Assembly: GCA_041653615.1 (NCBI GenBank)
Contig: JBAZEZ010000009.1
Coordinates: forward strand, 5,330 to 69,329
Reading direction: 5' to 3'
DNA length: 64,000 bases
From: Candidatus Ratteibacteria bacterium
GTDB lineage: Bacteria; Ratteibacteria; UBA8468; MWAK01
Position numbers and translations under genes: made by a program. The notes below the pieces were generated by a model. It did not search any database. It had not been told where the DNA came from and was given only the letters and a program-made list of their open reading frames with translations. Positions 9,704 to 61,080 of the stretch are shown here, in pieces. Position 1 is the stretch's first letter, and each line of letters begins with the position of its first letter.

Positions 9704-9727
9704 GTAGTGCGACCCTTTCAGGGTCGC
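9704..9727 (+). repeat. GTAG-type REP (GCGACCCT subfamily), left island boundary
   Basis: gtagtgcgaccctttcagggtcgc; inverted copy at 17564-17587 (23/24) and a third copy at 61010-61033. Confidence 0.85.
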
Positions 9728-9852: not shown

Positions 9853-10251
9853 TTGAGTATCGTGATTAAAACCATAGGGAATAAAAAGTACGCCTATCAT
9901 GCCTATCGCACCGGCAGTAAGGTAGTGCACCGGTATCTTGGAAGCGTTTCCGACAAGAACGTGGCGGCAAAAATCAAGGTACTGAAAACGGAGAAGCGGA
10001 TACCGAGTCAATTCCACCCTTTATTCTGGGACACGAATCCCGATAAAATAAACATCCGTAAAAACGCAAGGTACATCGTTGAGCGTGTCCTGGAAATCGG
10101 CGGCCTTGAGGCTTTCCAATGGATACAAAAACTCTACCCGACAAGACTGATTACCGAAACGTGCGACACGAGCAGAAAAATATCGGAAAAATCGAAAATA
10201 TTCTGGAAAATCTGGACTGGAGACCGCGATGCATTCCGAATGTTTCCCTAA
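9853..10251 (+). CDS. Putative antitoxin: DUF6922-like C-terminal domain with an N-terminal basic beta-sheet domain
   Basis: LFWDTNPDKI...YIVERVLEIGGLEAFQWIQKLY resembles DUF6922; directly upstream of and overlapping an AbiEii-like gene; TTG start after aggag. Confidence 0.65.
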   Translation: MSIVIKTIGNKKYAYHAYRTGSKVVHRYLGSVSDKNVAAKIKVLKTEKRIPSQFHPLFWDTNPDKINIRKNARYIVERVLEIGGLEAFQWIQKLYPTRLITETCDTSRKISEKSKIFWKIWTGDRDAFRMFP

Positions 10252-10885
10252 GGAAGGATTATTGGTTTTAACCCGGTTGAAACACATCGTTCGCCCGCAT
10301 CACTTCCTCCTGGCCGGCGGTACCGCAGCGGCGATTCAAATCGGGCACAGGATATCTGAAGACCTTGATTTTTTCACAAACCAACCCTTCGCAACCGAAG
10401 AAATTTTTCGCGAACTTCAGCGCCGGAAACTCGCTCCTTTGCTTTTACAGGAAGAAAAACACACGCTGACCGTAATTATCAAACAAACTAAGGTATCCCT
10501 GTTTTATTATCCCTACCCGTTTATTGAGAAGTATCTTGAATGGAAAGGCATCGCGGTTTCACAAATTACGGATATTGCCGCTATGAAAATTATCGCCATA
10601 AATCAAAGGGGAGCAAAAAGAGATTTCGTTGACCTGTATTTTATGCTCCAAACGGTCCCGTTTTGGAAAATCTCCGAAAACATGGTGAAGCGGTTTGGCG
10701 CAAACCGGGTCAATCCCGTGCATATCGGTAAATCACTGGTTTACTTTCACGAAGCGGACTCCGACCCGGAACCCCGGTATTGCAAGGGAAAAGAAACCGA
10801 TTGGCAAATTATCAAAGCATTTTTTGCCAATCATGTTCCGCAAATGGTTCTCGCCCTTCAAAACGCAACAGAGGTAAGAACTTGA
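10229..10885 (+). CDS. Nucleotidyltransferase of the AbiEii/AbiGii toxin family
   Basis: FLLAGGTAAAIQIGHRISEDLDFF, DIAAMKIIAINQRGAKRDFVDLY. Confidence 0.85.
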   Translation: MHSECFPKEGLLVLTRLKHIVRPHHFLLAGGTAAAIQIGHRISEDLDFFTNQPFATEEIFRELQRRKLAPLLLQEEKHTLTVIIKQTKVSLFYYPYPFIEKYLEWKGIAVSQITDIAAMKIIAINQRGAKRDFVDLYFMLQTVPFWKISENMVKRFGANRVNPVHIGKSLVYFHEADSDPEPRYCKGKETDWQIIKAFFANHVPQMVLALQNATEVRT

Positions 10886-10892
10886 CAAATCT

Positions 10893-11249
10893 TTACTTAC
10901 CCTTCTCTTCATCCGCCAAGTAATTAGCCATCTTCCAAAGCATCTTCTTGAAATTATCCCCTTTATCCCTGACCAGACTTTCCAGCCGACGGGTAAAAAG
11001 ATCCTGATTGCTCTTCAGATAGGCAACCGGTTCTTTCGGCGGATAAAAAAGGCCCTGGACGGGCACCCCCAGAGCATCGGCGATTCTCTTCATCGTCTCC
11101 AGGCTTGCTTTCTTGGTTCCCCGCTCCACGTGGCTTAAAAAACTGGGGCTTATTTTTGCCTTAAAAGCCACCTTCTCCTGGGTTACTCCAATCTTTTCCC
11201 TGATTTCCCTGATACGTTTGCCCAATATGCGGTAGATGTTTTTTTCCAT
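10893..11249 (-). CDS. XRE/Cro-C1 helix-turn-helix regulator
   Basis: LGKRIREIREKIGVTQEKVAFKAKISPSFLSHVERG. Confidence 0.9.
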   Translation of the reverse strand: MEKNIYRILGKRIREIREKIGVTQEKVAFKAKISPSFLSHVERGTKKASLETMKRIADALGVPVQGLFYPPKEPVAYLKSNQDLFTRRLESLVRDKGDNFKKMLWKMANYLADEEKGK

Positions 11250-11311
11250 TAGGGAATATTATCGCCTATTATTCCTTTATTCTTAAATAGTCCATAGGAA
11301 ATATAAATAAT

Positions 11312-11340
11312 TTGACTTATGGATATAGTTGTGATAATAT
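11312..11340 (+). promoter_or_regulatory. Candidate sigma70 promoter for the lipoprotein cluster
   Basis: TTGACT-N17-TAATAT in the AT-rich divergent intergenic region. Confidence 0.55.
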
Positions 11341-11395
11341 TCATAAATAAACGTTTCCCAGGATCTGTCAAAATTTTTCTGTAAAAGGGAGGAGG

Positions 11396-11923
11396 ATGGA
11401 AAAGATAAAAAGATTGGTTTGGTTAGGCATAGCTATCGGTGTAATAGGCGTCTTGGCAGGTTGCGCCACCGGCCCTATGGTAGGTAAAGCCAACGTTCCT
11501 GCTCCGGAAAAGATTGAGACCCTTCAAATGTCCCCGTTATCTCTCGAAGTTTTGGACGAAACCAAGCAGGAAAAGAACCAGACGTTCATTCAGTCATTAG
11601 AGAATGATTTAAAACTGGAACTCTCCAACAACAGAATCCAGATGGATACAGAAGCGGACAAAACATTAAAGGTTTCCGTTAAGAGCGTCCATCAGACCGG
11701 GTACGCAAAAGAGTTCATAACCGGTCCTTTCCACGGACCCTCTTACCTTAAACTCAGCGTTACTTTAACCGATAAAACCGGAACTTCTCTGGCCGAATTC
11801 CCGGTGGCGCCGTTTTACGGCAACACCAAAGCTATATCCAACTTGTTAAAATCTCCGGGAAAAATTACCAAAAAACTGGCTCAGGAGATCGTGAGTAGTC
11901 TAATATCGTTGAAGAAGCGTTAA
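11396..11923 (+). CDS. Putative lipoprotein (DUF4410-like)
   Basis: Signal peptide with lipobox LAGC; SD ggagga. Confidence 0.65.
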   Translation: MEKIKRLVWLGIAIGVIGVLAGCATGPMVGKANVPAPEKIETLQMSPLSLEVLDETKQEKNQTFIQSLENDLKLELSNNRIQMDTEADKTLKVSVKSVHQTGYAKEFITGPFHGPSYLKLSVTLTDKTGTSLAEFPVAPFYGNTKAISNLLKSPGKITKKLAQEIVSSLISLKKR

Positions 11924-11944
11924 TAAAACACGAGGAGAATAAAG

Positions 11945-12514
11945 ATGGGGGAATTAGGAGCAAACGCAAAAGTTTTAATGTTGTTAACATTGGGGTCTTT
12001 ATTGCTCGCAGGCTGCGTAACCTTTGGATCGGAAAGCGATACGAATAGTCCAACATCTGAGCAAAAAGTCTTAAGCGGAGCGCAGACATGCAGTGCGGTC
12101 TTTGAAGAATTGATTCCCGAACACAAACCTGACTTCCAAACATTTAAAGAATCTTATGAAAAATCGTGGTCGGTAACTGTGGGGGTGCTTAAAACACTTG
12201 AAAATCCAATTACTTCAGCAGATAAGGAAAATGGCGTTATCGTAACCGATTACCTGGAAAAACCGAAAGGCATGTTCAAAGGGCCTTGGAGAGATAAATA
12301 CTACGTAACAGTCAGCAAAACAGACGCTTCAACAACCCAAATAAAAATCAAACGAACGGTTGAAGAATTGGAGGCGCTCGAGAGAGTGCAGGGAAGTCGT
12401 CTTGTCGGTAAAGTCTGGCGGGAAAAGACCGGTGGCGTGGAATGGATGAAAAAACAGTCAAATGGCGCTTATGAAAAATACATCCTTGGTCTCATAGGAA
12501 AAAACTTGAAATGA
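11945..12514 (+). CDS. Putative lipoprotein (alpha/beta BamC/DUF3568-like fold suspected)
   Basis: Lipobox LLAGC; WSVTVGVLK...ITSADKENGVIVTDY pattern. Confidence 0.6.
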   Translation: MGELGANAKVLMLLTLGSLLLAGCVTFGSESDTNSPTSEQKVLSGAQTCSAVFEELIPEHKPDFQTFKESYEKSWSVTVGVLKTLENPITSADKENGVIVTDYLEKPKGMFKGPWRDKYYVTVSKTDASTTQIKIKRTVEELEALERVQGSRLVGKVWREKTGGVEWMKKQSNGAYEKYILGLIGKNLK

Positions 12515-12563
12515 AATAAGAAAACGGAAGACTCCAATTAACGATAGGTAACGGAGGTGTAAA

Positions 12564-12962
12564 ATGGCGCAAAAGGTTACCAACGTCACAACGAAACTGT
12601 CTGCAGAAGACGTAATCGTTAGATCGGTCCAGTTTTTTACCAACGAGAAATGGAGAACGCAAACTCAAAGTTCAAGAGCGGTGACGTTTAGGACCAATCT
12701 GCCAGTGCCGCGAGTAATTACCGGTTTTCTTCTTTTTATCGGTGGTATTTTTTTATCTTTTACGATAGTGCTGCTAATAATCGGAATTCCCATGGTTATT
12801 GCCGGATTTTTAATACTTTTCTCTGCTGGAGTACGCTTGCTCGGTTCACAAGACCTGGTGGTAACAGCCACGCAGTCAGGAAACGGTTCTGAAGTTATAA
12901 TTACGCATGCATATCAAGCCGCGCGTTCCGTAAATCAATTTGTTGAAGCTCTTCCTCAGTAA
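12564..12962 (+). CDS. Hypothetical membrane protein (two TM helices)
   Basis: Central hydrophobic hairpin ITGFLLFIGG...GFLILFSAG; SD ggagg. Confidence 0.65.
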   Translation: MAQKVTNVTTKLSAEDVIVRSVQFFTNEKWRTQTQSSRAVTFRTNLPVPRVITGFLLFIGGIFLSFTIVLLIIGIPMVIAGFLILFSAGVRLLGSQDLVVTATQSGNGSEVIITHAYQAARSVNQFVEALPQ

Positions 12963-12978
12963 CCTTTTATTAAAAGTT

Positions 12979-13242
12979 ATGATCGATGTATCCGGAAAAC
13001 CGGAACAAGAATGGATAGAGGAATTAAAACATAGGGAAAGCGACCGAAATTACACAACCGCGCTTATTCTATCGGTTTTGTTCGGCGCCTTTGGCGCGGA
13101 CCGTTTCTATTTGGGATATACCGGACACGGTTATTGGAAACTTGTTACACTTGGCGGTTTTGGCATATGGTGGTTAATTGATATATTTCTAATCGCTTCC
13201 GGTAAATTGCTGGATGCGGATGGGTACTTAATAAAAAAATAA
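12979..13242 (+). CDS. TM2-domain membrane protein
   Basis: ALILSVLFGAFGADRFYLGYTGHGYWKLVTLGGFGIWWLID. Confidence 0.85.
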   Translation: MIDVSGKPEQEWIEELKHRESDRNYTTALILSVLFGAFGADRFYLGYTGHGYWKLVTLGGFGIWWLIDIFLIASGKLLDADGYLIKK

Positions 13243-13299
13243 ACTCCGAATAATGAATGTATCCCGTAGCACTTAAAAACAACTTTTAGAGGAAAAAAC

Positions 13300-14343
13300 A
13301 TGATTAGAATTAATATGAAGTTTTTGTTAATGGGGCTTATTGTGTTGTTTGTTTATAATGTACAGGTGAGTCTTGTTTCTTCATCGGGGGCTCAAAATAT
13401 TGTTTCAATTAAACAAGATGAGCCAACAGTTCAAAAAGTCAGGATACTTATTGACCAGATAAGAGTAATTTCTACGAAAAGTGACGATTTGGAAGCTATA
13501 GGATGGGGCGTAATGACGCAGATGGAGAAAATTGGAAAAATTGGAAATCCTGCTTTACCCCCAATAATAGAAACACTCAACGATGCCAAGGAAAGCTGGA
13601 AGGTCAGATTTTTTATGGCCGTAATCCTAGGAGAAGTTATTCCGGATAAAATGACTGTTCCATCTTTGGTCAGGGTTGTGTCCAATAGAAAAGAACCTAC
13701 ACCACTTCGAACAGAATGTATCCAAGCGATGAGTTACATTGGCGATATCAGCGTAGTGACAACTCTTATCTCTACCCTTCGGGAATCAAATATTAACATA
13801 AAAATCACGGCAATGAATACCTTGGGAAACTTGAAGGATAGCAGGAGTGTTCCTTACCTGATTACTCAATTAGATGATCCCGACTGGAATATCCAAATGG
13901 TGGCTTCGAGATCGCTTGGGCGCATCGGAGACTCACGGGCAATCAGCCCCCTAATCAAAAAAATCAAGGGGAATAAACTACCCAAAGACAATTCAAGAAT
14001 AATGCAAACCGTCACTATTGACGCGTTATCTAACTTCAACACCCCTGAGGTCGAACAATATTTCATATCCATTCTTGAAGAAAATGAAACTGAAGACAAT
14101 GTTAGGATGGCGACAATTGATGGTTTGGGCAGAATGAAGAGCGAAAAGTCTATAGATTTACTCTCGAAATTATTGCTCAGCAAGAAGGAGATTTTTAGAA
14201 AGCATGCAGCTGCAGCACTTGCTGAAATTGGTAATAAGAAAGCACTCAAATCAATTCAGCAGTCTATAGAAAGCACGGACAGTGAATATGTAAAGAATTC
14301 ATTGGAACATTCAGCCAAAAAACTTTCCGAAAGCGGGAAATAG
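13300..14343 (+). CDS. Exported HEAT/PBS-lyase repeat protein
   Basis: N-terminal signal/TM, then about 8 HEAT units (e.g. AMNTLGNLKDSRSVPYLITQLDD, ASRSLGRIGDSRAISPLI). Confidence 0.85.
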   Translation: MIRINMKFLLMGLIVLFVYNVQVSLVSSSGAQNIVSIKQDEPTVQKVRILIDQIRVISTKSDDLEAIGWGVMTQMEKIGKIGNPALPPIIETLNDAKESWKVRFFMAVILGEVIPDKMTVPSLVRVVSNRKEPTPLRTECIQAMSYIGDISVVTTLISTLRESNINIKITAMNTLGNLKDSRSVPYLITQLDDPDWNIQMVASRSLGRIGDSRAISPLIKKIKGNKLPKDNSRIMQTVTIDALSNFNTPEVEQYFISILEENETEDNVRMATIDGLGRMKSEKSIDLLSKLLLSKKEIFRKHAAAALAEIGNKKALKSIQQSIESTDSEYVKNSLEHSAKKLSESGK

Positions 14344-14372
14344 TAAGTAATCATTTGTCGAAGGAGAAGGTT

Positions 14373-17300
14373 ATGAATATTATGATTAAGAAATATCTCC
14401 TTACTATATTGTCGATACCTGTTCTGTCGATTCTTCTGTCTATCCAATACTGCAATGCGTACGTTTCCTGGGCCTCTACTAATCAAAACCAATATCCTGG
14501 GGCCGCAGATGCTGTTTTCAAAGATCTCGGACCCAATGCTTGGGGTATTCCCGTATCTTTTCAGGTAGGTCACGCCGCTATTTTTTACCAGTATGGCACG
14601 GATGGTTCTCGACAGGTAATTCAAGCAAATGGATATAGTGCACCCAGCAGTATAGCATCATGGAGTGATTTCCTGGGAGGCTTGGAATATTGGGGAGCCT
14701 ATTCACAGTCGCGGATTGATGCTTCCGCAAGAGAAGAGATTCTATACATTGCCACTACCTATTGTCTTAATATTCCTTATGCGTTGAATCGTGGACACTA
14801 TAAGGATCCACCGAACAGCTTAAGGTGCGACGGTCTTGTTGAATATTGCTATGAACGGGCTTTTGGTGAAGAGAATTCACCAGCATATACCCAGCCAAAT
14901 CAAGGGATAGTGCCCAATGATCAGTATGATGGAAACGCTCTTCGGCTGTGGTCATTTGCTTTGGATTCAGATAGTTCCGAACATTACATGACTCCTGAAA
15001 TAGTGATGGAATGGATTAACAACCAATCTACTGTAGATGATCCAACCACGGATGATCATGATTGGGGCAGTGGAAATTCAAGACAGGGCAAGAACTCTAT
15101 TAACCATAATCCGGCATTAACGAGTGGAACTGTTAGTCCGTCTTCAGGATATGCCAATTCGACGAGTTTTACGTATTCGGTAAGTTACTCTGATGCCGAC
15201 TTGGATGTGCCAGTCACAGCTTACGTCTATATTGACGGCAACCCACACACAATGACATTTGTCAGCGGTAAAGCATACAATGGGATATATCAATATATAA
15301 CGACTTTATCAAGTGGGTCGCACAGCTACTACTTTTATTTCATTGATAATCAGAATAAATCGGGTTCGTGTAGATTGCCTTCCTCTGGTAATTACTCTGG
15401 GCCGATTATTACCATCCCACCAGCTATCTCCGTATCCCCGTCAGACGGATTGACCTCTTCGGGCAACCAAGGTGGACCGTTCAGCCCCTCAAGCAAACAG
15501 TACTCTGTTTCTAACAGCGGCGGAGGAACCTTAAACTGGACAGCTTCGGCAAACCAGAACTGGGTAACTGTCTCACCAACAAGTGGCACCAACTCCGGGA
15601 CAGCGACAGTTTCAATCAACAGTAACGCCAACAGCCTCTCCGGTGGTGCTACCTACATCGCCACCGTGACCTTTGGCGGAAATGGTGGTAGCACTGCCCG
15701 GCAAGTCAGTCTGACTGTGCAGAATCAGACCGCTATAATCAACATGACTATTGGGCCTCTCCCGGTAGATTTTGGTACCGTTTCGGTCGGCCAATCAGTC
15801 CAGCAAAACCTTACGATTACGAACGGTTCTAATTCAACCGGTGCATTAATAGGTTCCGTTGGCACACCACCTGTTCCTTTTTCCCTTGTGAGCGATAATG
15901 CTTTTAATCTTGCGCCAGGACAATCCAAAATATTCACTTTTCGGTTCTCACCAACAACAAACGATACATTTAACAATAGTTTTGCCGTTACAAGTAATGC
16001 CACCAACCAGGTGAGCCCAGTGAACCTTTCTATGTGCGGTGTTGGCTTCGGCGGACCCAGCTATGGCATGACAATAACTTCGTGCGCAATCAGTAACACC
16101 AACCCAAATACCGGACAAGCGGTAACCCTGACCGGCATGGGTGGTCAGGTACACGGAGTCACAAGTGGGGACTTAATCAAAGTGGTCGTTGGCTTCCGCG
16201 ATGGTTCAGGAAACTGGAGGGGCGGCGAACCGGTTTTGGTTTCGAGCACAGTTCCGGGGCAGAGTTTTCAACCGTGGTCGTACAGCAGCGGTGTTTCCGT
16301 CAACGCACCTTCGAGCTCCGGCACATACTACGTTTGGGTACGTTCAGTGCCAACAGTTACTAATGCCACGGCCATCCAGGATTTTAAAAATGCTGCCCCA
16401 ACCAGTGCTGATCAACAACGGGACGATAAGTGGAGCACACCGCTGACAGTCAACGGCAATGACCCGCTTTTCGGAAATCTACTTTTGTACAAACAGGATG
16501 GAACCCAAATTCTTGGAAACGTCCCTATAGATAATCCTGTTAGGGCTAACGGAACTTATACTGTGGGCAGCGACGGAAGCAACCAAGCATTAAGCCGATG
16601 GGAAATAATTTCGGGAAGTGATGTAGTGTTTACCGATACCTGTCTCTCGGGCGATTTGACTTCTTGCTGGCTACCGGGCAATGCCCTGAACCCTGGAACT
16701 GCTTACACTTTAAAAGTCAGAGCTAAAAACTCCAACAGTATTTGGTCGGAATGGGTTTCCCTGGATTTCAACACGATTCCACAAATACAATCTAATGATT
16801 CAAATGGTGACGGTGTTCCGGATGACCAGACACCAACTAATGCCGATTTAATATCGTATGGTTTCGTTCCTTATAATCCTGGCATTCCTGATTCCGGCCT
16901 TCCCGATACTGCTTTGATCGTAAAGTTCAACAACGAGCCCATCTTGGTTGAGTCCACCGGCAACGATACAATTTCTTATTTTGCCGGCATCACACCTTCG
17001 GAGGTGCCACCGTCAGATTACAGTAATCCTTATGGTGTTTTTACTACCCGGATAGAAGTTCCGGTGGGAACATCCATAACACTCACATACACGTTCCCCG
17101 CAACATTGCCTTCCGGTACTTTATGGTACAAATATGATGAATCTGCCACGGCCGGAAACAAATGGGTTGAATATCCAGATGCATTCCTTGGTCCGGGTTC
17201 AAATCAATTTACGATACAGGTTACCGATGGAGGTGAAGGTGATGCTGACGGAGTTGCCAATGGTATCATCATAGACCCATCCGGACCTATTTCGCCCCCA

Positions 17301-17417
17301 CCAACCCCTCCTCCTAACGGCGGTGGAGACAAAGGCGGTGGAGGAGGAGCCGCTGGTCCTCTTGCCGTGGGTATCTCCACCCTTCTGGGCTGGTGGAAAC
17401 GTAGGAAGCGGGGATAG
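14373..17417 (+). CDS. Large surface protein: permuted papain-like (YiiX/YaeF-type NlpC/P60) domain, Ig/BACON/ASH-like repeats, choice-of-anchor U-like domain, GlyGly-CTERM-like tail
   Basis: Signal peptide; VGHAAIF precedes RCDGLVEYCY; QYSVSNSGGGTLNWTASANQNWV; DFGTVSVGQ; VTDGGEGDADGVANGIIIDPSG; tail GGGGAAGPLAVGISTLLGWWKRRKRG. Start taken at ATG 14373 after aggag. Confidence 0.75.
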   Translation: MNIMIKKYLLTILSIPVLSILLSIQYCNAYVSWASTNQNQYPGAADAVFKDLGPNAWGIPVSFQVGHAAIFYQYGTDGSRQVIQANGYSAPSSIASWSDFLGGLEYWGAYSQSRIDASAREEILYIATTYCLNIPYALNRGHYKDPPNSLRCDGLVEYCYERAFGEENSPAYTQPNQGIVPNDQYDGNALRLWSFALDSDSSEHYMTPEIVMEWINNQSTVDDPTTDDHDWGSGNSRQGKNSINHNPALTSGTVSPSSGYANSTSFTYSVSYSDADLDVPVTAYVYIDGNPHTMTFVSGKAYNGIYQYITTLSSGSHSYYFYFIDNQNKSGSCRLPSSGNYSGPIITIPPAISVSPSDGLTSSGNQGGPFSPSSKQYSVSNSGGGTLNWTASANQNWVTVSPTSGTNSGTATVSINSNANSLSGGATYIATVTFGGNGGSTARQVSLTVQNQTAIINMTIGPLPVDFGTVSVGQSVQQNLTITNGSNSTGALIGSVGTPPVPFSLVSDNAFNLAPGQSKIFTFRFSPTTNDTFNNSFAVTSNATNQVSPVNLSMCGVGFGGPSYGMTITSCAISNTNPNTGQAVTLTGMGGQVHGVTSGDLIKVVVGFRDGSGNWRGGEPVLVSSTVPGQSFQPWSYSSGVSVNAPSSSGTYYVWVRSVPTVTNATAIQDFKNAAPTSADQQRDDKWSTPLTVNGNDPLFGNLLLYKQDGTQILGNVPIDNPVRANGTYTVGSDGSNQALSRWEIISGSDVVFTDTCLSGDLTSCWLPGNALNPGTAYTLKVRAKNSNSIWSEWVSLDFNTIPQIQSNDSNGDGVPDDQTPTNADLISYGFVPYNPGIPDSGLPDTALIVKFNNEPILVESTGNDTISYFAGITPSEVPPSDYSNPYGVFTTRIEVPVGTSITLTYTFPATLPSGTLWYKYDESATAGNKWVEYPDAFLGPGSNQFTIQVTDGGEGDADGVANGIIIDPSGPISPPPTPPPNGGGDKGGGGGAAGPLAVGISTLLGWWKRRKRG

Positions 17418-17458
17418 GCACTGGCCGGACAAGAACAAGTGAGTTTTGATTGTAGAAA

Positions 17459-17500
17459 CAGCCCCGGGACAGAAAAAAGGTTTCGGGGCTGCTCTATTTT
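17459..17500 (+). terminator. Possible intrinsic terminator after the surface-protein gene
   Basis: cagccccg...cggggctg stem with a long loop, then ctctatttt. Confidence 0.35.
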
Positions 17501-17529
17501 AGGCAGTCTCCTTTGACAACTGCAAATAC

Positions 17530-17557
17530 GAGATTCTTCGCTACGCTCAGAATGACA
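17530..17557. repeat. GTCATTCTGAGC/GAAGAATCTC-type palindromic repeat (single copy here)
   Basis: gagattcttcgctacgctcagaatgaca. Confidence 0.55.
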
Positions 17558-17563
17558 CAACAA

Positions 17564-17587
17564 GCGACCCTGAAAGGGTCGCGCTAC
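17564..17587 (-). repeat. GTAG-type REP (GCGACCCT subfamily), right island boundary
   Basis: Reverse complement gtagcgcgaccctttcagggtcgc; 23/24 identical to 9704-9727. Confidence 0.85.
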
Positions 17588-17666
17588 GAAAGAGACTACG
17601 GCCTCCTATCCACCCCCACCTTGCCTCCCCCGTCAAGGAGGAAACAAGAGGAAACAATTAGTGGAT

Positions 17667-24594: not shown

Positions 24595-25755
24595 ATGGAC
24601 TACTTTCAAGAATCGCTCGCCCTGCACCTGAAACACCGGGGAAAGATTGAAGTGTGCAGCAAGGTTGCGCTAAAAGACAAGACTGACTTGTCCCTTGCTT
24701 ACACGCCCGGCGTAGCCGCGCCCTGCAAGGAAATTGAACAGGACCCAAAACGTCTCTACGACTACACCAGCAAGGGAAACATGGTAGCGGTGGTAACCGA
24801 CGGCAGCGCAGTACTGGGCCTGGGCAACATCGGACCGGAAGCCAGCCTGCCGGTAATGGAGGGAAAAGCAATTCTCTTCAAAGAATTCGGCGGGATTGAC
24901 GCCTTTCCCATCGCCATCGCCAGCCAGGATGTAGACGAGATTGTCCGCACCGTCGTCTTAATTTCACCCGTATTTGGCGGCATAAATCTGGAGGATATTT
25001 CCGCCCCCCGATGCTTCCTGATTGAAGAACGACTAAAAAAAGAACTGAAAATTCCGGTCTTTCACGACGACCAGCATGGAACCGCGGTGGTAACATACGC
25101 GGCCCTGTTAAATGGCTTAAAAATAGTAAGGAAAAAGAAGGAAGATATTAAAGTGGTCATCTCCGGGGCAGGCGCCGCCGGTATTGCGATTGCCAAATTC
25201 CTTTTGGCGGCCGGCGTTACCGAAATCATTGTCTGTGACCGCCGCGGAACCATATATGAAGGCAGGAACGGCGAAACCAATACCGCCAAAGAAAAGATAG
25301 CCCTGCTCACCAACCGGAAAAAACTCTCCGGAAGTTTATCTTCCGCGCTGGCCGGCGCGGATGTTTTTGTCGGAGTTTCGGTGCCGGGCCTGATTACCGC
25401 GGAAGACGTGAAGAAAATGGCCGCCCGAGCCATCGTCCTGGCGATGGCCAACCCGATTCCGGAAATTTCACCGGAAGAAGCCAAGGGCGCCGGCGCCGCA
25501 ATCGTGGCAACCGGACGAAGCGACTACTCCAACCAAGTCAACAACCTGTTAGCTTTTCCGGGAATTTTCAAAGGCGCTTTTCAGGCAAAAGCGGTGAGTA
25601 TTACCGAAGAAATGAAAATTGCGGCCAGCTTGGCGATTGCCTCGCTGGTTTCCAACAAAGAACTCTCGCCGAATTATATTATCCCCTCGCCCCTGGACCG
25701 CCGCGTGGCCGATTCTGTCGCGGAATCGGTAAAGACCGCCGCGCTTCAGCGGTAG
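24595..25755 (+). CDS. NAD(P)-dependent malic enzyme (short form, no PTA domain)
   Basis: [62 protein letters not shown]. Confidence 0.93.
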
Positions 25756-26444
25756 GAAGCACCCCAATCGCTGTACTCGGAAAGATAGACGTTATAATCC
25801 TCGGAAGCAATATTCAAAACCGGCCCGAACCCCTTGTTCTTGTGCCAGAGACAGCGCACCACCGGTGTATGCCCCCTGTACGGGGATGAAGTAAGCATAT
25901 ATTGGGAATACTCCCGCCAAGTAACATCAGAACCCGGCACCCCGCCGGCAGTTACTTCACCCGTATCGGCCGGATCCGGATTAAACATTAAAAGGTAGGA
26001 ACAATTACGGGGATTATCAGGATCGTTAATCCGGCCGCTCTTTGGGTTGGCCTCGTCGTACCTGTCACATCCGTTCCAGTTATCGGCCGCGGAAGCGCCC
26101 CAAGCCTCAAATCCGTGTCCAAACGCTCCATTATCCCTATCGGTCAGACAAGTCAGGACTTTCGGGTTGGTGCCCAGGTAATTCGGTTGCAGATTGGACA
26201 ACCAGTACGGAAATTGATACTCCCAATCCTGGCGATACATTTCAATCGCGGCAGAAAACTGCCTCAGATTATTAATGCAGTTAGCCTGACGACCTTTTTC
26301 CCGCGCGCTGGAAAAAGCCGGTAATAATTGACTGGCTAAAATATTGATAATGGCAATTACTACTAAAAGTTCAATTAAAGTAAACCCCTTAGAAGACAAT
26401 CGCCGCCTACACGGGGTAAATCCGAAACGCTTGTTACCGTTCAT
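25746..26444 (-). CDS. Prepilin-type N-terminal methylation protein (PVC/DUF1559-like)
   Basis: [14 protein letters not shown]...[23 protein letters not shown]. Confidence 0.85.
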
Positions 26445-27145
26445 TTTCCCGTTACCGCCTCTTCTCTGAATTTAACCTCTTTAGCCGCGTCGGCCGCGGC
26501 AGCCCTCACCGTAAAATCAGTTTCGCTGCCAGCCAAATTATTTAAGCGATTCAGGGTATCCGGGCCGCCTCTGCGGCTTAAGAAAGAAAGGGCTTCGACC
26601 CGTAGAGAACTATCTTCCGTGGTCTTCTCCGCCAAACGCAAAATAAGACCGGTTGCTTCCGAACCGGGAATCCGCGCGAAAAGAACCAGGGCGGCATGTC
26701 TCACTGCGGGCAGGGGGTCAGAAAGACCTTTTTCCAGATAGGGATACGCCTTTTCTTTTTCCTTGCGGCTAATCGTTTCCAGACCAATCATCCGGATCTT
26801 GGCATCCGGCGAATTTAGGAGATTGAGAAATTTTATCCGGTCTAAAATCAGGATGGAATAAGCGGCGGCCCGGCGTACTCTTTCATCCGAGTCTAAAGTA
26901 AGGACTTTTTCCAGGTCAGATACCGCGCCTTTTGCGTTAATGCGTCCTAAACCAAGCGCGGCGTCAAGACGGGTTTCCGGAATCACGCTGACAAGACCCT
27001 GTAAATATTTTGTCGAACTTTCCCCTTCCGGCCTGCGGCAGGAACGGACGATTAAAACCAAAAAAAAGGCAAGAATTAAAAAGAGAATGATGCCGACGGC
27101 GATTTTTTTCTTTTCTGGAATATTCCAAAAATCGCTTGTAGGCAT
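26441..27145 (-). CDS. Membrane-anchored HEAT-repeat protein
   Basis: N-terminal TM; [38 protein letters not shown]. Confidence 0.8.
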
Positions 27146-28798: not shown

Positions 28799-30529
28799 CT
28801 ACCTGATGACTACAATTGTCCAATCGTAAGCAAGTCCGGTCTTCTTGTCTTTAACCATCAGAACCTGCTTTCCCGGCGTACCGAATATAACCGAAGGTTC
28901 CCGGGAAGACCGAAAATTATGATCGGAAGACATAAACTCAAGTTCACCGGCGTATTCCGAAACTTCATTCCCGTAACGGTCGCTGAAAAGAACCTTAAAT
29001 TTGTATTCCTGGCCCAGAACCGCCACCATGGGAATGCCATCCAACCTGATATCAGCCGAAACAGCCGGTTTTACCTCAAACGGATTAGACTTTCCGGAAT
29101 GGTTATTTCCGTCTTCCACCACCAGGCAGGTCTCTTTGGACGCCTTAGTAACCAGAACCTCCTCCACTCTGGCTCCGGAAATATAACTTTCCCGGGAAAC
29201 TATCAAAGTACCGGTGGTGTCGCTCAAATAAGGACCTTTGACCGTGTTTCCCCATCGGTCTTCGGAATGAATGATAACGCTAAAGGGTTCGCCGGCAATC
29301 TTCGGCGAATTAATCCGGTCAATCGTGAAATGGTCAACAGCGCCTGGATTTACCACAAAGGCCTTTTCTCCGGTAATGTCACCGTTTAAATCCCTTTGGA
29401 GGGTTGCTTTTATCTTTTGGTTTCCGGCCTTAAAAAAAGCGAGCCGGAATTTCCCAATCTGATCCGGATCTTGACTTCCGGTTAATAGTATTGGCTGCAT
29501 CTTTTGCATCTGGGCGGTGGGGTCAGAACATTCCAACTTCATCTTTCCCTCGTAAACCAGGCAGATATTCCCAAACTTGTCCTGAACCAGAACTTCCAGC
29601 TCAAAACCTTTCCCGGCTTTTAAATCATTTTTCGGCAATAAGATTTCAATCTTTTCCGGCAGCCCAGGGACCACATCAACCTTCGCGGGGAAAAAAGCAC
29701 CCTCTTCGTCCACCACCAGGACAGTATCTACCCCAACGCTCCGGGAAAAGGACATGTCGCCTTCCCAGACGCCTTTGGAAAGCACAACCGTTTCTGGTTG
29801 AATACTGCCGTTTACACTCGCGATACTTACCGTTTTGTCAACCGGAGCCATCTTTCCGGATTCATCATAGCCGACAATCTTCACCCGTAATTCTCCGACA
29901 ACGATCTTCTCCGGCAAATTTTCCACCCGAACCTTAACCGGTCTCTTCACCTGACCCGCTGCTGCTTCCGGCTCCGGCTTCTGCTTCGTAAAGCTGGACT
30001 CCGGCTGTTTGGTAGAAGGCGCTGCTACCACCGGAAAATTTATTCTGGGACCAACACTAACCGTGCCGTCCGCGCGCAGAATCTGATAACCCCTGCTGTG
30101 CGGAGACGGCACATCGGGACTAATTGAAGTTACTTCGGTCATCAACCAGGTAGAACCGGGGATTCCATCCAAACTTTTACCGCTTACGGTATCGTTCCAG
30201 AGATAGTTTGTACCGCGTTTATTAAGTTCGGAAGGAATTAACGGGCAGAAAAAGACGGCTTTGTTACCGCTGAGACTATCCTTAAGTAAATTATTGATTC
30301 CTTTTATATCGTCCGGAGAACTCGGAAAAAAAACAGCGTTGGGCAAAGAGCCGTTGTCCATCTGAAAATTAACCAGCGCCAGATAAATTTGGTGCAGATT
30401 ATTCTGACAAGCGGCTTCGTTCCCCTTGCGCACAACCTGGTAGGCGGTAAAAGAAATCGAAGAAACAAAAGCGGCAACCACCGCTAATTCCAAAAGCGCG
30501 AACCCGGATTTCCGCCACATTCCCTTCAT
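28799..30529 (-). CDS. Prepilin-like protein with an internal H-X9-DG motif followed by Ig-like (invasin-type) repeats
   Basis: SGFALLEL, ACQNNLHQI, HSRGYQILRADG; repeated V.PG...F.V...D..GN units. Confidence 0.7.
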   Translation of the reverse strand: MKGMWRKSGFALLELAVVAAFVSSISFTAYQVVRKGNEAACQNNLHQIYLALVNFQMDNGSLPNAVFFPSSPDDIKGINNLLKDSLSGNKAVFFCPLIPSELNKRGTNYLWNDTVSGKSLDGIPGSTWLMTEVTSISPDVPSPHSRGYQILRADGTVSVGPRINFPVVAAPSTKQPESSFTKQKPEPEAAAGQVKRPVKVRVENLPEKIVVGELRVKIVGYDESGKMAPVDKTVSIASVNGSIQPETVVLSKGVWEGDMSFSRSVGVDTVLVVDEEGAFFPAKVDVVPGLPEKIEILLPKNDLKAGKGFELEVLVQDKFGNICLVYEGKMKLECSDPTAQMQKMQPILLTGSQDPDQIGKFRLAFFKAGNQKIKATLQRDLNGDITGEKAFVVNPGAVDHFTIDRINSPKIAGEPFSVIIHSEDRWGNTVKGPYLSDTTGTLIVSRESYISGARVEEVLVTKASKETCLVVEDGNNHSGKSNPFEVKPAVSADIRLDGIPMVAVLGQEYKFKVLFSDRYGNEVSEYAGELEFMSSDHNFRSSREPSVIFGTPGKQVLMVKDKKTGLAYDWTIVVIR

Positions 30530-38829: not shown

Positions 38830-40713
38830 GTGAACAAAATGAGCGAGTTTGACTTATATCTCTTTTCGGAAGGTACCCTCTACCGGGCCTACGAAAAATT
38901 GGGCAGCCATCCGAAAACTATAAACGAAAAATCCGGTGTCTCGTTTGCCGTCTGGGCTCCCAACGCGAACAGCGTTAGCGTGGTCGGAGACTTCAACCAC
39001 TGGGACGGTCGGAAAAATCAGATGAACCCGGTCGGTTCTTCCGGAATTTGGGAAATATTCGTCCCGGACCTGACGGAAAAAACGCTCTACAAGTACGAAA
39101 TCAAAACCAGAAATAACACACTCCTGCTTAAGACAGACCCCTACGCCTTCTATTCGGAGGTCAGACCGAAAACCGCCTCGATCGTCTGGAATATCAACCG
39201 GTATGTCTGGCAGGACGACGATTGGATGAAAAAACGTAAAGAAAGACAACACCTGGCCGCGCCGTTGAACATTTACGAAATCCACCTGGGTTCCTGGATG
39301 CGCGGGGAAGGGAACACCTTATTGAGTTACCGGGATTTAGCACCCAAACTGGCTGAATACGTGTTGCGGATGGGCTTTTCCCACGTGGAATTTATGCCGT
39401 TCACCGAACACCCCCTGGATGAATCCTGGGGCTACCAGACTACCGGCTACTTTGCGCCGACCAGCCGATTCGGAACACCGGATGATTTCGCTTACCTGGT
39501 TGACCATCTTCACCAAAATGGAATCGGCGTCATCGCCGACTGGGTGCCGGCTCACTTTCCAAAGGACGGACACAGTCTCGCCCGATTTGACGGAACCGCT
39601 TTATACGAACACACAGACCCCAGACAGGCCGAACATAAGGACTGGGGAACACTCATATTCAACTACGGTCGTTACGAAGTTGCCAACTTCCTGATTAACA
39701 GCGCCTTATTCTGGCTGGATAAATACCACATCGACGGCCTGCGGGTGGACGCGGTCGCTTCCATGCTTTACCTGGATTACTCCAAAAAACCCGGCGAATG
39801 GATTCCCAACCGTTTCGGCGGTAATGAAAACCTGGAAGCGGTTGCCTTTTTGAAAAGACTCAACCAGGTCGTTTACGGCTATCACCCGGATGTTTTCACC
39901 GCGGCCGAAGAATCCACTTCCTGGCCGATGGTTTCCCGACCCACCTACGCCGGCGGTCTGGGTTTCGGATATAAATGGAATATGGGCTGGATGCATGATT
40001 CACTCCACTACATTTCCCGAGATGCCGTCTACCGAAAATTCCACCAACAGAACCTGACCTTTGCCCTCCTTTACGCGTTCAGTGAAAATTTTATCCTGCC
40101 GCTTTCACACGACGAGGTCGTACATGGTAAGGCTTCGCTTCTGGCCAGGATGCCGGGTGATGATTGGCAGAAATTTGCCACCCTGCGTCTCCTGTTGGGT
40201 TATATGTACACTCATCCGGGTAAAAAATTGCTCTTTATGGGCGCGGAAATAGGTCAGTGGCGGGAATGGGATTTTCTCTCAAGCATAGACTGGCATCTCC
40301 TGCAGTATGAACCGCACCGGAAACTGCAGCGGTTTGTCCGGGACTTAAACCTGTTTTACCGGAACCAGCCGCCGCTCTACCAGTTGGATTCAAGCCCGGC
40401 CGGATTTGAATGGATTGATTTCAACGATACGGAAGGAAGTATCGTCTCCTACCAGCGTTACGGACAGGACAAAAATGATTCACTAGTAGTAATCTGCAAC
40501 TTTACGCCGGTACCCCGTTTTAATTACTGCGTCGGCGTCCGCCAACCCGGTTTTTACCGGGAACTCCTCAACAGCGATTCCGAATACTACGGCGGAGGCA
40601 ATCTGGGCAACAGCGGCGGCCTGGAAACTCAAAAAATTCCCTGTCACAACAGGCCTTTCTCCCTTTCCCTAACCATTCCACCCCTGGCTGCCCTCATTCT
40701 GAAACATATTTAG
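38830..40713 (+). CDS. glgB: 1,4-alpha-glucan branching enzyme
   Basis: [68 protein letters not shown]. Confidence 0.97.
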
Positions 40714-41640
40714 AATCCGGCAACCGCCGCCGCAATTGCTGAATTTCTTGCAGTCAGGACAATTTTTCTTAAGGTTATTTGCCTGAAAATATTTTACCTT
40801 TTCCAGTTCTGTCAACTTTAAAAAGCTATCTTCAAAAAGACTTCCCAGGATTTCGGGATTCTGCTCGCAGGTTCTCAAGTTGCCGGATGAATCAATAACC
40901 CATTTATTCCGGCCGCAGACGCAGGTACCGAAATTAAGGTTCGGATATTGCTCCTGGTCAATGAGGCAGGACTCAACCGGAACCGTAACGTTTATCGGAA
41001 AATTATATTCCCGGGCTTTTCGGTCCGAGGCAAACAAGGCCTTTCCCAATTCCTCTTCGGTCAGCGTTAATCCGGGAAGGTTATTCAGGCCTTCCCCTCC
41101 CGGCACAAACCGGTTTAGGGAAACGCTGTCCGCCGAAAAAGCAAAACAGAGGTCAATGACATCCGCCACTTCTAATAAGTTCTGCTTTGTAATTACGACG
41201 GAAACATTCAATTTTGCCCGGTATTTTTTTACCAGTAAAATTGCATTTCTTACTTTCTGCAACTGGTCGTTTCGACTTAAATAAGAATACGCCTCTTGTT
41301 TTATGCTCGGAAGCGAAATTTCAAAATAACCGACACCGTTACTAACTAAAGCCGAAACCTTCTCTTCATCCAAAAGGATACCGTTGGTGGCGATTCCCAG
41401 TTTGATTTTCCTCTGGTTGAAAAAAGACGCGATTTCTACAATATCCCGATGCAGCAACGGCTCCCCGCCCGCGAAGGTTACTGAATCCGGTGAAACTTCC
41501 TTGAGAACCCTATCAAATAATTCCCTGATTTCTGAAAGTGTGAGTTCTTTCCGGGGATAACCGCTCTTTTCTTTCCAGACATTATAACAGTAACGGCAGT
41601 TATTGTTGCAGCGGGAAGTTACCTCGTAAATAAAAAACAT
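40669..41640 (-). CDS. Radical SAM protein with SPASM domain
   Basis: [20 protein letters not shown]; SPASM cysteines CVCG...CE...CPDC...CGGGC. Confidence 0.92.
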
Positions 41641-42611
41641 TACCGGCTTGCCCCAAAGTAAATTCGCCAGATTGCCGACTCCAAATCCGCAATCAATTCA
41701 TTCATTCCGGAAAAGGACTCCTTAAAATCCGCGAACGCTTTCTTGGTTGCCAGGTATTCTTTCTCGGGTAGTTCCGGATAGCCTATTTCTTTTTGACTGG
41801 CTTGGTAATCAGCAAAATCTTTGTTAAAAACCGACGCAAGTTTATCTACTTCCTGCGCCGTTGAAGGCCTTGGAAATGGTATACGATAGGAACCGGGTTG
41901 ACCGGAAAACACATCCAAAATGCAAAATGCCTTTATATCCTGTTGGATGTTGGAAAGGGCTTGGCGATATTCCGACGCATTAATAACCTTTGCCTTCTTC
42001 AAAACCAGAAGCCGGTCAATCTTCAATTCCAAGTCAGCGAGAAAATCCGGTTTCGCCATAATTACCGAATCTGTCGGAATAGCCATCCGCGTCAGCGCAA
42101 GATAAAACGTACCCCGGCCAATGTAATCAATTCTGGCATTACAAATTTTTTTCAGAAGGCCGGTTTCCGCCGCGGCTATCTTTTCTCCGGTAATTTTGTT
42201 TAAACCGGAGAATACTTCATCCGATTCTTTTCGCAGGCTACTACATTCGTCCGGGGAAATTGAACCGCTGTACACTCCGTATTTATCCGGCTCCGGTTTT
42301 TTCGTTTCTATTTGGTCTAACTTCTTCCAAAACGCTTTGAGATTTCTCCATTCCGGGGTACTGTTCAAGGCGGCTATTCTCTGCGCTGAAACGAGGCGCG
42401 TATCTTTTGATTGTCCGGAAACCGTTGGTTTATCCTCCTGAGCGTAACTTATTCTGCCAAAAGAAAGAAAAACGAGGAAGAGGAAAAAAGTACTCAGGAA
42501 GAGGTTTCGGCGATTAATCCGGTTCAGTTTCGCCGGACGAATGCCCAGAAAAAAGACGAGATAGGCGACCAGCACCGCAAATACAACTACAACTGCTTGA
42601 ATGGGTTTCAT
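41640..42611 (-). CDS. Hypothetical exported/membrane helical protein coupled to the radical SAM gene
   Basis: Hydrophobic N-terminus, RRNLF, second hydrophobic stretch, SYA|QE; its TAA overlaps the radical SAM ATG; SD aaaggag. Confidence 0.7.
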   Translation of the reverse strand: MKPIQAVVVVFAVLVAYLVFFLGIRPAKLNRINRRNLFLSTFFLFLVFLSFGRISYAQEDKPTVSGQSKDTRLVSAQRIAALNSTPEWRNLKAFWKKLDQIETKKPEPDKYGVYSGSISPDECSSLRKESDEVFSGLNKITGEKIAAAETGLLKKICNARIDYIGRGTFYLALTRMAIPTDSVIMAKPDFLADLELKIDRLLVLKKAKVINASEYRQALSNIQQDIKAFCILDVFSGQPGSYRIPFPRPSTAQEVDKLASVFNKDFADYQASQKEIGYPELPEKEYLATKKAFADFKESFSGMNELIADLESAIWRIYFGASR

Positions 42612-61009: not shown

Positions 61010-61080
61010 GCGACCCTGAAAGGGGCGCACTACATTTAACTACAAACATCTATGTTTTGTAGTTACCCAGCTTGCTGGGC
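61010..61080. repeat. Two GTAG REPs (61010-61033 minus, 61059-61080 plus)
   Basis: gcgaccctgaaaggggcgcactac; gtagttacccagcttgctgggc. Confidence 0.78.

Follow-up and report, generated by a model that had tools for sequence, protein, structure and literature searches.

A probable stalk-mounted, permuted NlpC/P60 acyl enzyme encoded beside a HEAT-repeat partner in Candidatus Ratteibacteria

A stretch of 64,000 nucleotides from a Candidatus Ratteibacteria bacterium (assembly GCA_041653615.1, contig JBAZEZ010000009.1, positions 5,330 to 69,329 of the forward strand) was analysed and is referred to below as the window, with coordinates counted from its first letter. Two genes at 13300-14343 and 14373-17417 probably (a probability of roughly 60%) form a unit encoding an exported, stalk-mounted acyl enzyme of the permuted NlpC/P60 type together with a HEAT-repeat partner. 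The catalytic head of the second product, called the enzyme here, is by sequence comparison and structural modelling a circularly permuted NlpC/P60 (papain-like) domain with intact catalytic residues. The features of the unit are listed below, with enzyme residues numbered from the ATG at 14373.

13300..14343 (+): HEAT partner gene, encoding an exported HEAT_2/PBS-lyase-type protein of 347 amino acids (Pfam HEAT_2, 126 bits)
14373..17417 (+): enzyme gene
14373..14459 (+), residues 1-29: signal peptide MNIMIKKYLLTILSIPVLSILLSIQYCNA, read directly from the sequence
14481..15020 (+), residues 37-216: catalytic domain
14571-14573: His67, in VGHAAIF (residues 65-71)
14622-14624: Gln84, in VIQANG (residues 82-87)
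14778-14780: Tyr136, in LNIPY (residues 132-136), 16 residues before Cys152
14826-14828: Cys152, in RCDGLVEYCY (residues 151-160)
14847-14849: Cys159, the second cysteine, at +7 from Cys152
within 15021..15491 (+), residues ~217-255: acidic low-complexity linker
within 15021..15491 (+), residues ~256-373: first beta-rich unit, with no curated model (DUF7743 at 14.7 bits on residues 296-331)
15492..15713 (+), residues 374-447: BACON_2 (PF19190), 30 bits against a cut-off of 25
15720..16046 (+), residues 450-558: ASH / choice-of-anchor D Ig-like domain
16047..17009 (+), residues 559-879: rest of the stalk, Ser/Gly/Thr/Asn-rich and beta-rich, with DSNGDGVPDD at residues 809-818 (16797-16826)
17010..17288 (+), residues 880-972: choice-of-anchor U (NF041766), containing TDGGEGDADGVANGIIIDP (residues 951-969)
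17289..17417 (+): Pro-rich spacer PPPTPPP (residues 975-981), tripartite tail of GGGDKGGGGG (residues 983-992), AAGPLAVGISTLLGWW (residues 993-1008) and the C-terminal KRRKRG (residues 1009-1014), and stop codon
17457..17500 (+): possible intrinsic terminator behind both genes, AGCCCCGGG...CGGGGCT and then CTCTATTTT, read from the sequence

In the head, His67 is followed by Gln84 and then by Cys152, an order that is kept in all 40 aligned homologues. The histidine and the R, C and D of the R-C-D-G-L-V-E motif are invariant among these 40 sequences and at least 90% conserved in an alignment of 99; in the set of 40 the invariance extends to the pattern R-C-D-x-L-V. Tyr136, the tyrosine of LNIPY, is at least 90% conserved in both alignments, and the third catalytic position, filled here by Gln84 of VIQA, shows only polar residues (Q, E, H or D). 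Such conservation across homologues indicates that the His and Cys motifs are not chance occurrences. Four catalytic positions have been defined for NlpC/P60 enzymes, namely a Cys, a His, a polar residue and a Tyr (Xu et al. 2011, PMC3142127), and on alignment His67, Gln84, Tyr136 and Cys152 are these four positions in the present enzyme. The cysteine at +7 after the catalytic one is found in 114 of 154 family members (74%).

The catalytic-domain family is small. A single-sequence search of a 5.8-billion-protein collection with the catalytic region gave one match, P0001, a two-sequence profile raised the number of relatives to 44, and an exhaustive HMMER search of 1.84 billion representatives yielded 166 at E <=1e-3. 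No match was returned when the catalytic region was compared with PDB sequences by phmmer. The architecture, which the original prediction had not recognised, is without a curated family, in that no Pfam or NCBIfam model reaches its cut-off on residues 1-260, which include the catalytic domain.

The same prediction had read the His-before-Cys order as the mark of a permuted NlpC/P60 enzyme, and this is borne out by several comparisons. In its native order, the family profile matches the PDB entries 9ubf (E 0.021) and 4hpe (E 0.094), each in two pieces with the order swapped, such that along the chain the Cys part of the profile aligns first and the His part last. When 24 family members were cut in silico and the segment with the Cys helix was moved ahead of the His segment, the re-permuted profile gave one contiguous match each to 9ubf (E 1.2e-4), 4hpe (7e-4) and 4fdy (3e-3), the best E value improving about 175-fold, from 0.021 to 1.2e-4. 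The contiguous alignment spans the Tyr, the Cys (slRCDGL against sFDCSGL), the GD strand and the His (HaGlY against HVGIY). Colinear matches to PF05708 (Peptidase_C92, YaeF/YiiX), the best of them at E 8e-6, were found in 9 of 40 family members; a few relatives about reach the cut-off of that model, and P0035 bears a precomputed PF05708 label. In a phmmer comparison of P0035 with the PDB, only its Ig domain matched.

Structural models are broadly compatible with this assignment. Two AlphaFold2 models of the head, with predicted local distance difference test (pLDDT) scores of 81 and 85 and predicted template modelling (pTM) scores of 0.81 and 0.85, show a helix with Cys152 at its N-terminus, a strand carrying His67 and a following strand that ends in Gln84, the secondary-structure layout of papain-like folds. 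Homology and this placement together would bring Cys152 and His67 into one predicted active site. A Foldseek search against BFVD, a collection of predicted viral structures, gave matches with probabilities of 0.96-1.0 and template modelling (TM) scores of 0.46-0.53 over 137-176 columns. The top matches include two annotated homologues of G6R/OPG091, with TM scores of 0.49-0.53 over 150-176 columns, and G6R/OPG091 homologues reach a probability of 1.0; G6R is a member of the permuted YaeF/G6R family (PMC3142127). Among the matches are the Melanoplus entomopoxvirus protein MSV039 (TM score 0.49, root-mean-square deviation 3.5 A, 150 columns), OPG091 of Yasminevirus, and proteins of Harvfovirus and Pandoravirus. 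These poxvirus and giant-virus proteins are the best structural matches to the head model, at 9-17% sequence identity and E values of only 4e-3 to 2e-2, with targets that are predicted rather than solved; unlike the enzyme, they are small, cytoplasmic and viral, and have no stalk, anchor or HEAT partner. Partial Foldseek matches in the PDB (CcbD, CHAP domains, SH3-like barrels and TseH, the last as 6V98 only at E 0.88) were non-significant and were not used as evidence.

Among characterised relatives, the YaeF/YiiX family (MEROPS C92, PF05708; Escherichia coli YiiX and Bacillus cereus BcPPNE) has the same order of His, polar residue, Tyr and Cys (PMC3142127) and the same predicted layout as the enzyme head, with the beta-sheet subdomain first and the Cys helix after it. 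The third catalytic residue is Gln in the enzyme head and Glu in YiiX and BcPPNE, and the enzyme family adds the RCDGLVEYCYE signature, the HEAT partner and large extensions for surface display. YiiX binds a fatty acid (PMC3142127). The eukaryotic LRAT/PLAAT (H-RAS-like suppressor) acyltransferase-phospholipases share the permuted NlpC/P60 core, and LRAT has a second Cys seven residues after the catalytic one, both of which matter for acyl transfer (Xu 2011, PMC3142127). They are cytosolic and membrane-tethered, unlike the exported enzyme, and no Pfam LRAT match was found in the enzyme at E up to 1; the likeness in the +7 Cys is a resemblance only, a lead rather than a sign of membership. The closest solved structures by sequence are the conjugative-transposon NlpC/P60 hydrolases related to Tn916 Orf16 (9ubf, 4hpe and 4fdy), peptidoglycan hydrolases with a segment order reversed relative to the enzyme, to which a contiguous match is obtained only after artificial re-permutation.

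The HEAT partner gene lies outside the coordinates of the original prediction, which does not mention it. Its product has a hydrophobic N-terminal signal sequence, and the gene ends 29 nt before the ATG of the enzyme gene, with no terminator in the gap. With the protein in the corresponding position beside the relative P0047, the HEAT protein shares 38% identity (E 9e-66). Seven relatives were looked up individually (P0047, P0052, P0054, P0126, P0001, P0046 and P0008), and in all seven a HEAT_2 protein of 324-506 amino acids is encoded directly upstream on the same strand, so that, counting the locus itself, the arrangement holds in eight of eight inspected loci. In these relatives the spacing between the two genes ranges from an overlap to a 36-nt gap, and the other neighbours are unrelated.

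A wider set of 52 species-representative GTDB loci was classified with a profile built from the HEAT partners and with Pfam. A HEAT gene is adjacent upstream in 20 of the 52, fused in one open reading frame (ORF) N-terminal to the enzyme in about 5 (the fusions L025, L045, L048 and L054 pass the Pfam HEAT_2 cut-off), and 0.2-2 kb away in 8, upstream in seven of these and downstream in L020. No upstream sequence is available for 2 loci. HEAT was not detected in 13 Firmicutes-labelled loci and in 4 others, among them L044, which has a sub-threshold HEAT_2 match. Adjacent, fused or nearby HEAT thus accounts for about 33 of the 37 non-Firmicutes loci having upstream sequence. Of the 166 representatives, 8 join HEAT and enzyme in one polypeptide with a single signal peptide at the N-terminus, and 3 of these also carry a type IX secretion system (T9SS) sorting tail.

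A functional, and probably physical, partnership of the HEAT protein and the enzyme is very likely, because their genes are adjacent, spaced as in translational coupling and recurrently fused. Fusion is compatible with a cleavable inhibitory pro-domain, a chaperone or a substrate-binding subunit. An inhibitory loop was sought in the HEAT alignment, which gave the generic repeat pattern only. A confinement of the HEAT partner to diderms was considered and softened, as the ORFs upstream of the enzyme in the Firmicutes loci L018, L036 and L060 are distantly related to a HEAT_2 partner: they encode a related group of exported helical proteins, of which that of L018 matches the HEAT_2 protein of L050 (BLAST E 2e-10) and that of L036 is linked via L060 (E 2e-12). 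A literature search, in which the term 'HEAT repeat' was not covered, retrieved no description of a pairing of HEAT with permuted NlpC/P60. In giant proteins of Omnitrophota, HEAT_2 is reported to outnumber every other extracellular domain (bioRxiv 10.1101/2023.11.21.568195).

Other genes accompany the pair in some loci. A PD40 (TolB-like) beta-propeller gene stands between the HEAT and enzyme genes in four of the loci with a nearby HEAT gene, identified by family scan in three (L014:4991-5866, L030:4911-5876 and L034:4905-5882) and assigned by clustering in the fourth (L026:920-1780); its product may be a third component. A gene with a Tle1-like lipase domain, as known from type VI secretion systems (T6SS), lies directly 3' of the pair in L009 (5990-6961) and L010 (4920-5891). 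In L007 (1-3404) and L008 (530-1027) the pair follows type IV pilus/type II secretion system genes (T2SSE, T2SSF and N_methyl pilins).

The enzyme ORF runs uninterrupted on the plus strand from a TTG at 14355 or an ATG at 14373 to the stop codon at 17415-17417. The ATG is the likely start, because an AAGGAG ribosome-binding box lies about 8 nt 5' of it; this supports the start coordinate proposed earlier, and all motifs quoted with that proposal were located in the resulting product of 1,014 amino acids. The N-terminus has the look of a Sec-type signal peptide without a lipobox, with a cleavage site placed by eye. The exact protein is recorded, nameless, in NCBI, JGI and ENA assemblies, and its 90% cluster contains two truncated copies only. 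The HEAT and enzyme genes both recur with 0 differences in contigs of a landfill metagenome (2018) and of an independent groundwater one (2022), so the enzyme gene is not an assembly artefact. The possible terminator at 17457-17500 was not reported by a consensus terminator scan, probably by reason of its long loop; consensus scans for promoters and terminators gave counts no higher than in shuffled sequence.

About 660 residues of beta-sandwich modules separate the head from choice-of-anchor U. The original prediction had described this stalk as Ig-like, BACON-like, ASH-like and FN3-like units, of which the BACON and ASH-like units pass their cut-offs, while only sub-threshold hints stand behind the FN3-like and first Ig-like units. 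For the ASH region, Pfam ASH scores 33.8 bits on residues 465-546 against a cut-off of 27, HYDIN_VesB_CFA65-like_Ig 29.2 against 25.5, and choice-of-anchor D (NF012200) a borderline 46.1 against 45 on residues 450-545. Residues 729-798 give sub-threshold matches to Ig_Rha78A_N (19 bits) and Y_Y_Y (16 bits). Choice-of-anchor U, also named in that prediction, was confirmed with NF041766 at 83.4 bits against a cut-off of 32. In the assembly graphs of both metagenomes, the stalk region 16217-16452 forms a separate unitig of 236 nt with slightly lower depth, a break that points to differences between strains in the stalk.

The tail begins about 10 residues after choice-of-anchor U and consists of a Cys-free Gly-rich motif (983-992), a hydrophobic stretch of 16 residues (993-1008) and the basic KRRKRG (1009-1014). 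The relative P0196, 71% identical, keeps it nearly unchanged (GGGGGGGVPVSPLAAGISAFLVWWKRRKQRQG). Curated GlyGly-CTERM sequences are defined by a Cys-free Gly motif, a hydrophobic stretch with helix-breaking and aromatic residues and terminal basic residues, on a protein with a signal peptide and no other transmembrane segment, and they are also known in Planctomycetes and Verrucomicrobia (Haft and Varghese, PMC3237569). The last 32 residues of the enzyme agree with this architecture throughout, and the tail resembles GlyGly-CTERM in this respect. It shares with rhombosortase substrates such as Vibrio cholerae VesB the signal peptide, the single transmembrane segment in the tail and the tripartite extreme C-terminus, in which a hydrophobic helix with Gly, Pro and aromatic residues is followed by a final basic cluster. 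The hydrophobic stretch is 19% Leu, compared with 34% in the GlyGly-CTERM family. TIGR03501, the GlyGly-CTERM model, listed no match at E up to 10, at a setting where the HMMER filters may lose such short and weak matches. The tail weakly resembles the last 30 positions of NF038115 (SVAGG GlyGly-CTERM; 15.9 bits, E 0.005), and further weak matches were obtained with Loki-CTERM (12.6 against a cut-off of 19.9) and with the tail of a MYXO-CTERM family. A GlyGly-CTERM-like tail processed by rhombosortase, as originally proposed, is therefore possible: the architecture agrees, but the curated model gives no match and the 64-kb window holds no rhombosortase gene.

Homologues of the enzyme use other sorting devices. 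The T9SS sorting domain (Por_Secre_tail, TIGR04183) is absent from the enzyme itself. A C-terminal T9SS type A sorting domain is present in its closest homologues P0047, P0081 and L011, P0126 has a T9SS domain by Pfam Por_Secre_tail, and a home-made profile detects T9SS tails in 13 representatives overall. One catalytic head appears, on these domain assignments, to be carried on alternative sorting devices, as the choice-of-anchor domains imply. Surface display is the parsimonious reading for the enzyme, and the cell surface its most likely location, because close homologues carry a T9SS domain at the same position. A search with choice-of-anchor U and the tail together found 3 proteins, P0198 among them, too few to define a tail family. 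In P0198, a choice-of-anchor U relative, and in P0070, of the catalytic family, a Cys-containing motif (GSMCFITATT, GGGGGCFITTIAS) precedes the hydrophobic stretch; it takes the place of the Gly-only motif and looks like a different class of sorting signal.

From the chemistry of the NlpC/P60 superfamily, a mechanism can be proposed by analogy. Cys152, at the start of its helix, would attack an ester or amide carbonyl to form an acyl-thioester, with His67 as the base, oriented by Gln84, and with Tyr136 stabilising the oxyanion; the acyl group would then pass to water, as in a hydrolase, or to an acceptor, as in an acyltransferase. The presumed substrates are lipid- or lipoprotein-borne acyl groups rather than peptidoglycan, because the head falls in the permuted branch of the superfamily and has an LRAT-like second Cys at +7. 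The C-terminal tail would anchor or sort the enzyme, leaving the catalytic head at the end of the stalk farthest from the anchor, probably on the cell surface, and the HEAT protein would work with the head as a bound regulatory, inhibitory or chaperone subunit or as a substrate adaptor. A foreign envelope would be an attractive target given the predatory or parasitic lifestyle that has been proposed for Omnitrophota (PMC10066038); the 90%-identity clusters of the housekeeping neighbours CoaD, CTP synthase, PEP carboxykinase and malic enzyme bear the label Candidatus Omnitrophota.

Characterised bacterial enzymes offer partial precedents. Tox-Act1 and TseH are permuted NlpC/P60 phospholipases that are delivered by the T6SS and act outside the cytoplasm (PMC12994826). 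Like the enzyme with its HEAT partner, Tox-Act1 has a dedicated partner gene, in its case for immunity, and its phospholipase activity depends on His and Cys (PMC12994826); the immunity proteins of these effectors, however, are membrane proteins with two transmembrane segments encoded downstream, and the enzyme locus has no T6SS context. In Staphylococcus aureus, LnsA participates in lipoprotein N-acylation and needs a second protein, LnsB (PMC7387801), which makes LnsAB a precedent for an exported permuted NlpC/P60 enzyme that functions only with an unrelated partner. This likeness is one of description; LnsB is a CPBP-type integral membrane protein and no HEAT solenoid, and the lnsA and lnsB genes are non-adjacent.

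Several observations weigh against an exported, surface-displayed acyl enzyme acting with a HEAT subunit. The enzyme's own domain reaches 15.6 bits with PF05708 (E 0.017, over residues 29-129 of the catalytic fragment) where the cut-off is 27, and a whole-protein Pfam scan gave no match to this model. Foldseek searches of the PDB with both head models returned nothing significant, and the solved structures of YiiX (2IF6) and BcPPNE (3KW0) were retrieved neither in this way nor by sequence. Because the PF05708 cut-off was failed and the solved members were not retrieved, the head is filed as a divergent, uncurated branch of permuted NlpC/P60 enzymes and not as a member of the YiiX family. By sequence, no solved structures other than canonical peptidoglycan hydrolases were reached, which makes a cell-wall substrate a serious rival. 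The role ascribed to the HEAT protein derives from gene linkage. The tail fails every curated sorting-signal model tried, no rhombosortase or exosortase was found among the multi-transmembrane ORFs scanned in the window (among them MntP and several family-less ones), and no T9SS sorting enzyme is encoded there. A tail left unprocessed would keep the enzyme in the inner membrane.

The solved structures in question, 9ubf, 4hpe and 4fdy, are the chief argument for taking the head to be a peptidoglycan peptidase or amidase that remodels the cell's own wall or cuts that of prey or host, the permutation then being uninformative on the substrate. The proposal of Omnitrophota as predators or parasites would suit such an activity, and a link to cell-wall degradation has been drawn for giant proteins of this group (bioRxiv 10.1101/2023.11.21.568195). 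Nevertheless, a wall hydrolase appears rather unlikely: characterised permuted members use acyl or lipid substrates via a hydrophobic S1 pocket (PMC3142127, PMC12994826, PMC7387801), the colinear matches of the family are to PF05708, and a Pfam scan of the enzyme protein found no peptidoglycan-binding module (LysM, SH3b or PG_binding). In a toxin-antidote pair, the enzyme would damage envelopes as an effector, and the HEAT protein would be its exported immunity protein or a trans-acting, pro-domain-like inhibitor that silences it up to its release from the producing cell; this reading overlaps the preferred explanation and differs from it only in the role of HEAT. It would account for the tight linkage of overlapping or closely spaced genes and for the signal peptides on both proteins; it has a parallel in the permuted effector Tox-Act1, whose toxicity is confined to the periplasm and which comes with an immunity protein of its own (PMC12994826), and in the Tle1-like lipase gene after the pair in L009. 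This arrangement is nonetheless doubtful. HEAT is fused to the enzyme in several lineages, some of them T9SS-tailed, and so travels along with it, which is uncommon for immunity proteins and argues against a classical one, although the fusions would fit a cleavable pro-domain; moreover, an upstream immunity gene would be atypical, the genomic contexts are of a housekeeping kind, and the window holds no secretion-system effector context.

With regard to location, the tail might be a plain membrane anchor, giving an inner-membrane enzyme with a periplasm-spanning stalk, whose head, with the HEAT protein, would have the outer membrane, lipoproteins or wall of its own cell as targets. The lack of any match to a curated sorting model and of a sortase-type gene in the window would follow directly, as would a HEAT partner that has a signal peptide only and is expected to be periplasmic. 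A plain anchor is still on the improbable side, given that the tail has every architectural element of GlyGly-CTERM (PMC3237569), that it directly follows choice-of-anchor U, a domain defined by its position before alternative sorting signals, and that the closest homologues have T9SS surface-sorting domains at the same position. That the head is catalytically dead and the protein only an adhesin is very improbable; the long Ig-type stalk and the adhesin-like modules would suit an adhesin, and the four catalytic positions are intact and invariant, or nearly so, across the family. Beyond the preferred explanation of a stalk-mounted acyl enzyme with a HEAT partner, a more far-reaching proposal is advanced with considerable reserve, namely that HEAT protein and head constitute an undescribed, obligate two-component extracytoplasmic acyl-hydrolase/acyl-transferase, distributed over many uncultivated phyla on interchangeable stalks and anchors, which edits or breaches the envelope lipids or lipoproteins of partner cells. 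The phyla concerned may include Omnitrophota, WOR-3, Ratteibacteria, Desantisbacteria, Elusimicrobia, TA06, KSB1 and Kiritimatiellia. The HEAT solenoid may then serve as a safety catch during export or as a substrate-presenting subunit, and the cells using the system may be ultra-small episymbiotic or predatory Omnitrophota.

The HEAT and enzyme genes belong to a block at about 10000-16000 with a G+C content of 0.41-0.44, compared with 0.47-0.54 in the rest of the window, and this block may be an acquired island. Its other genes are:

10229-10885: AbiEii toxin gene, with a small ORF upstream (9853-10251)
11396-12514: two lipoprotein-like ORFs
12940-13242: ORF with a TM2 domain

A GC-rich hairpin, GCGACCCTGAAAGGGTCGC, occurs three times in intergenic positions (9709-9727, 17564-17582 and 61010-61028), where 0.01 occurrences are expected. 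In two metagenomes, contig depth over the stretch 17525-17590, with the copy 3' of the enzyme gene, is raised 6- to 20-fold and loose ends are numerous there, and for this reason the hairpin is regarded as a multi-copy element resembling repetitive extragenic palindromic (REP) sequences. It also creates a spurious minus-strand ORF at 17204-17563. Within the mraY/mur/ftsI cell-wall cluster lie three ORFs (25746-26444, 26441-27145 and 28799-30529, all on the minus strand), two of them with prepilin-type N-termini, one being GspG-like and the other judged by eye, with no family match; the remaining one is a second HEAT-like ORF, with a weak NblB match and E 6e-6 to the HEAT-partner profile. Elsewhere, a radical SAM/SPASM maturase-like gene abuts an ORF for a membrane-associated, family-less protein of 323 amino acids (40669-41640 and 41640-42611, both on the minus strand), and the two could be a peptide-modification pair.

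Few bacterial permuted NlpC/P60 enzymes have known activities, namely the phospholipases Tox-Act1 and TseH, and LnsA in lipoprotein N-acylation. The locus described here defines a small and sharply conserved branch outside all curated models. Its new elements are the near-constant HEAT companion, in some cases part of the same polypeptide, and the exchangeable modules for display and sorting, the head being found on T9SS tails, on a GlyGly-like tail or in short Big_7 forms. If the enzyme is a housekeeping processor of the wall or of lipoproteins, the finding would be of modest interest. A stalk-mounted enzyme active on envelopes would be a concrete candidate for contact-dependent interaction in Omnitrophota, for which a predatory or parasitic way of life is proposed.

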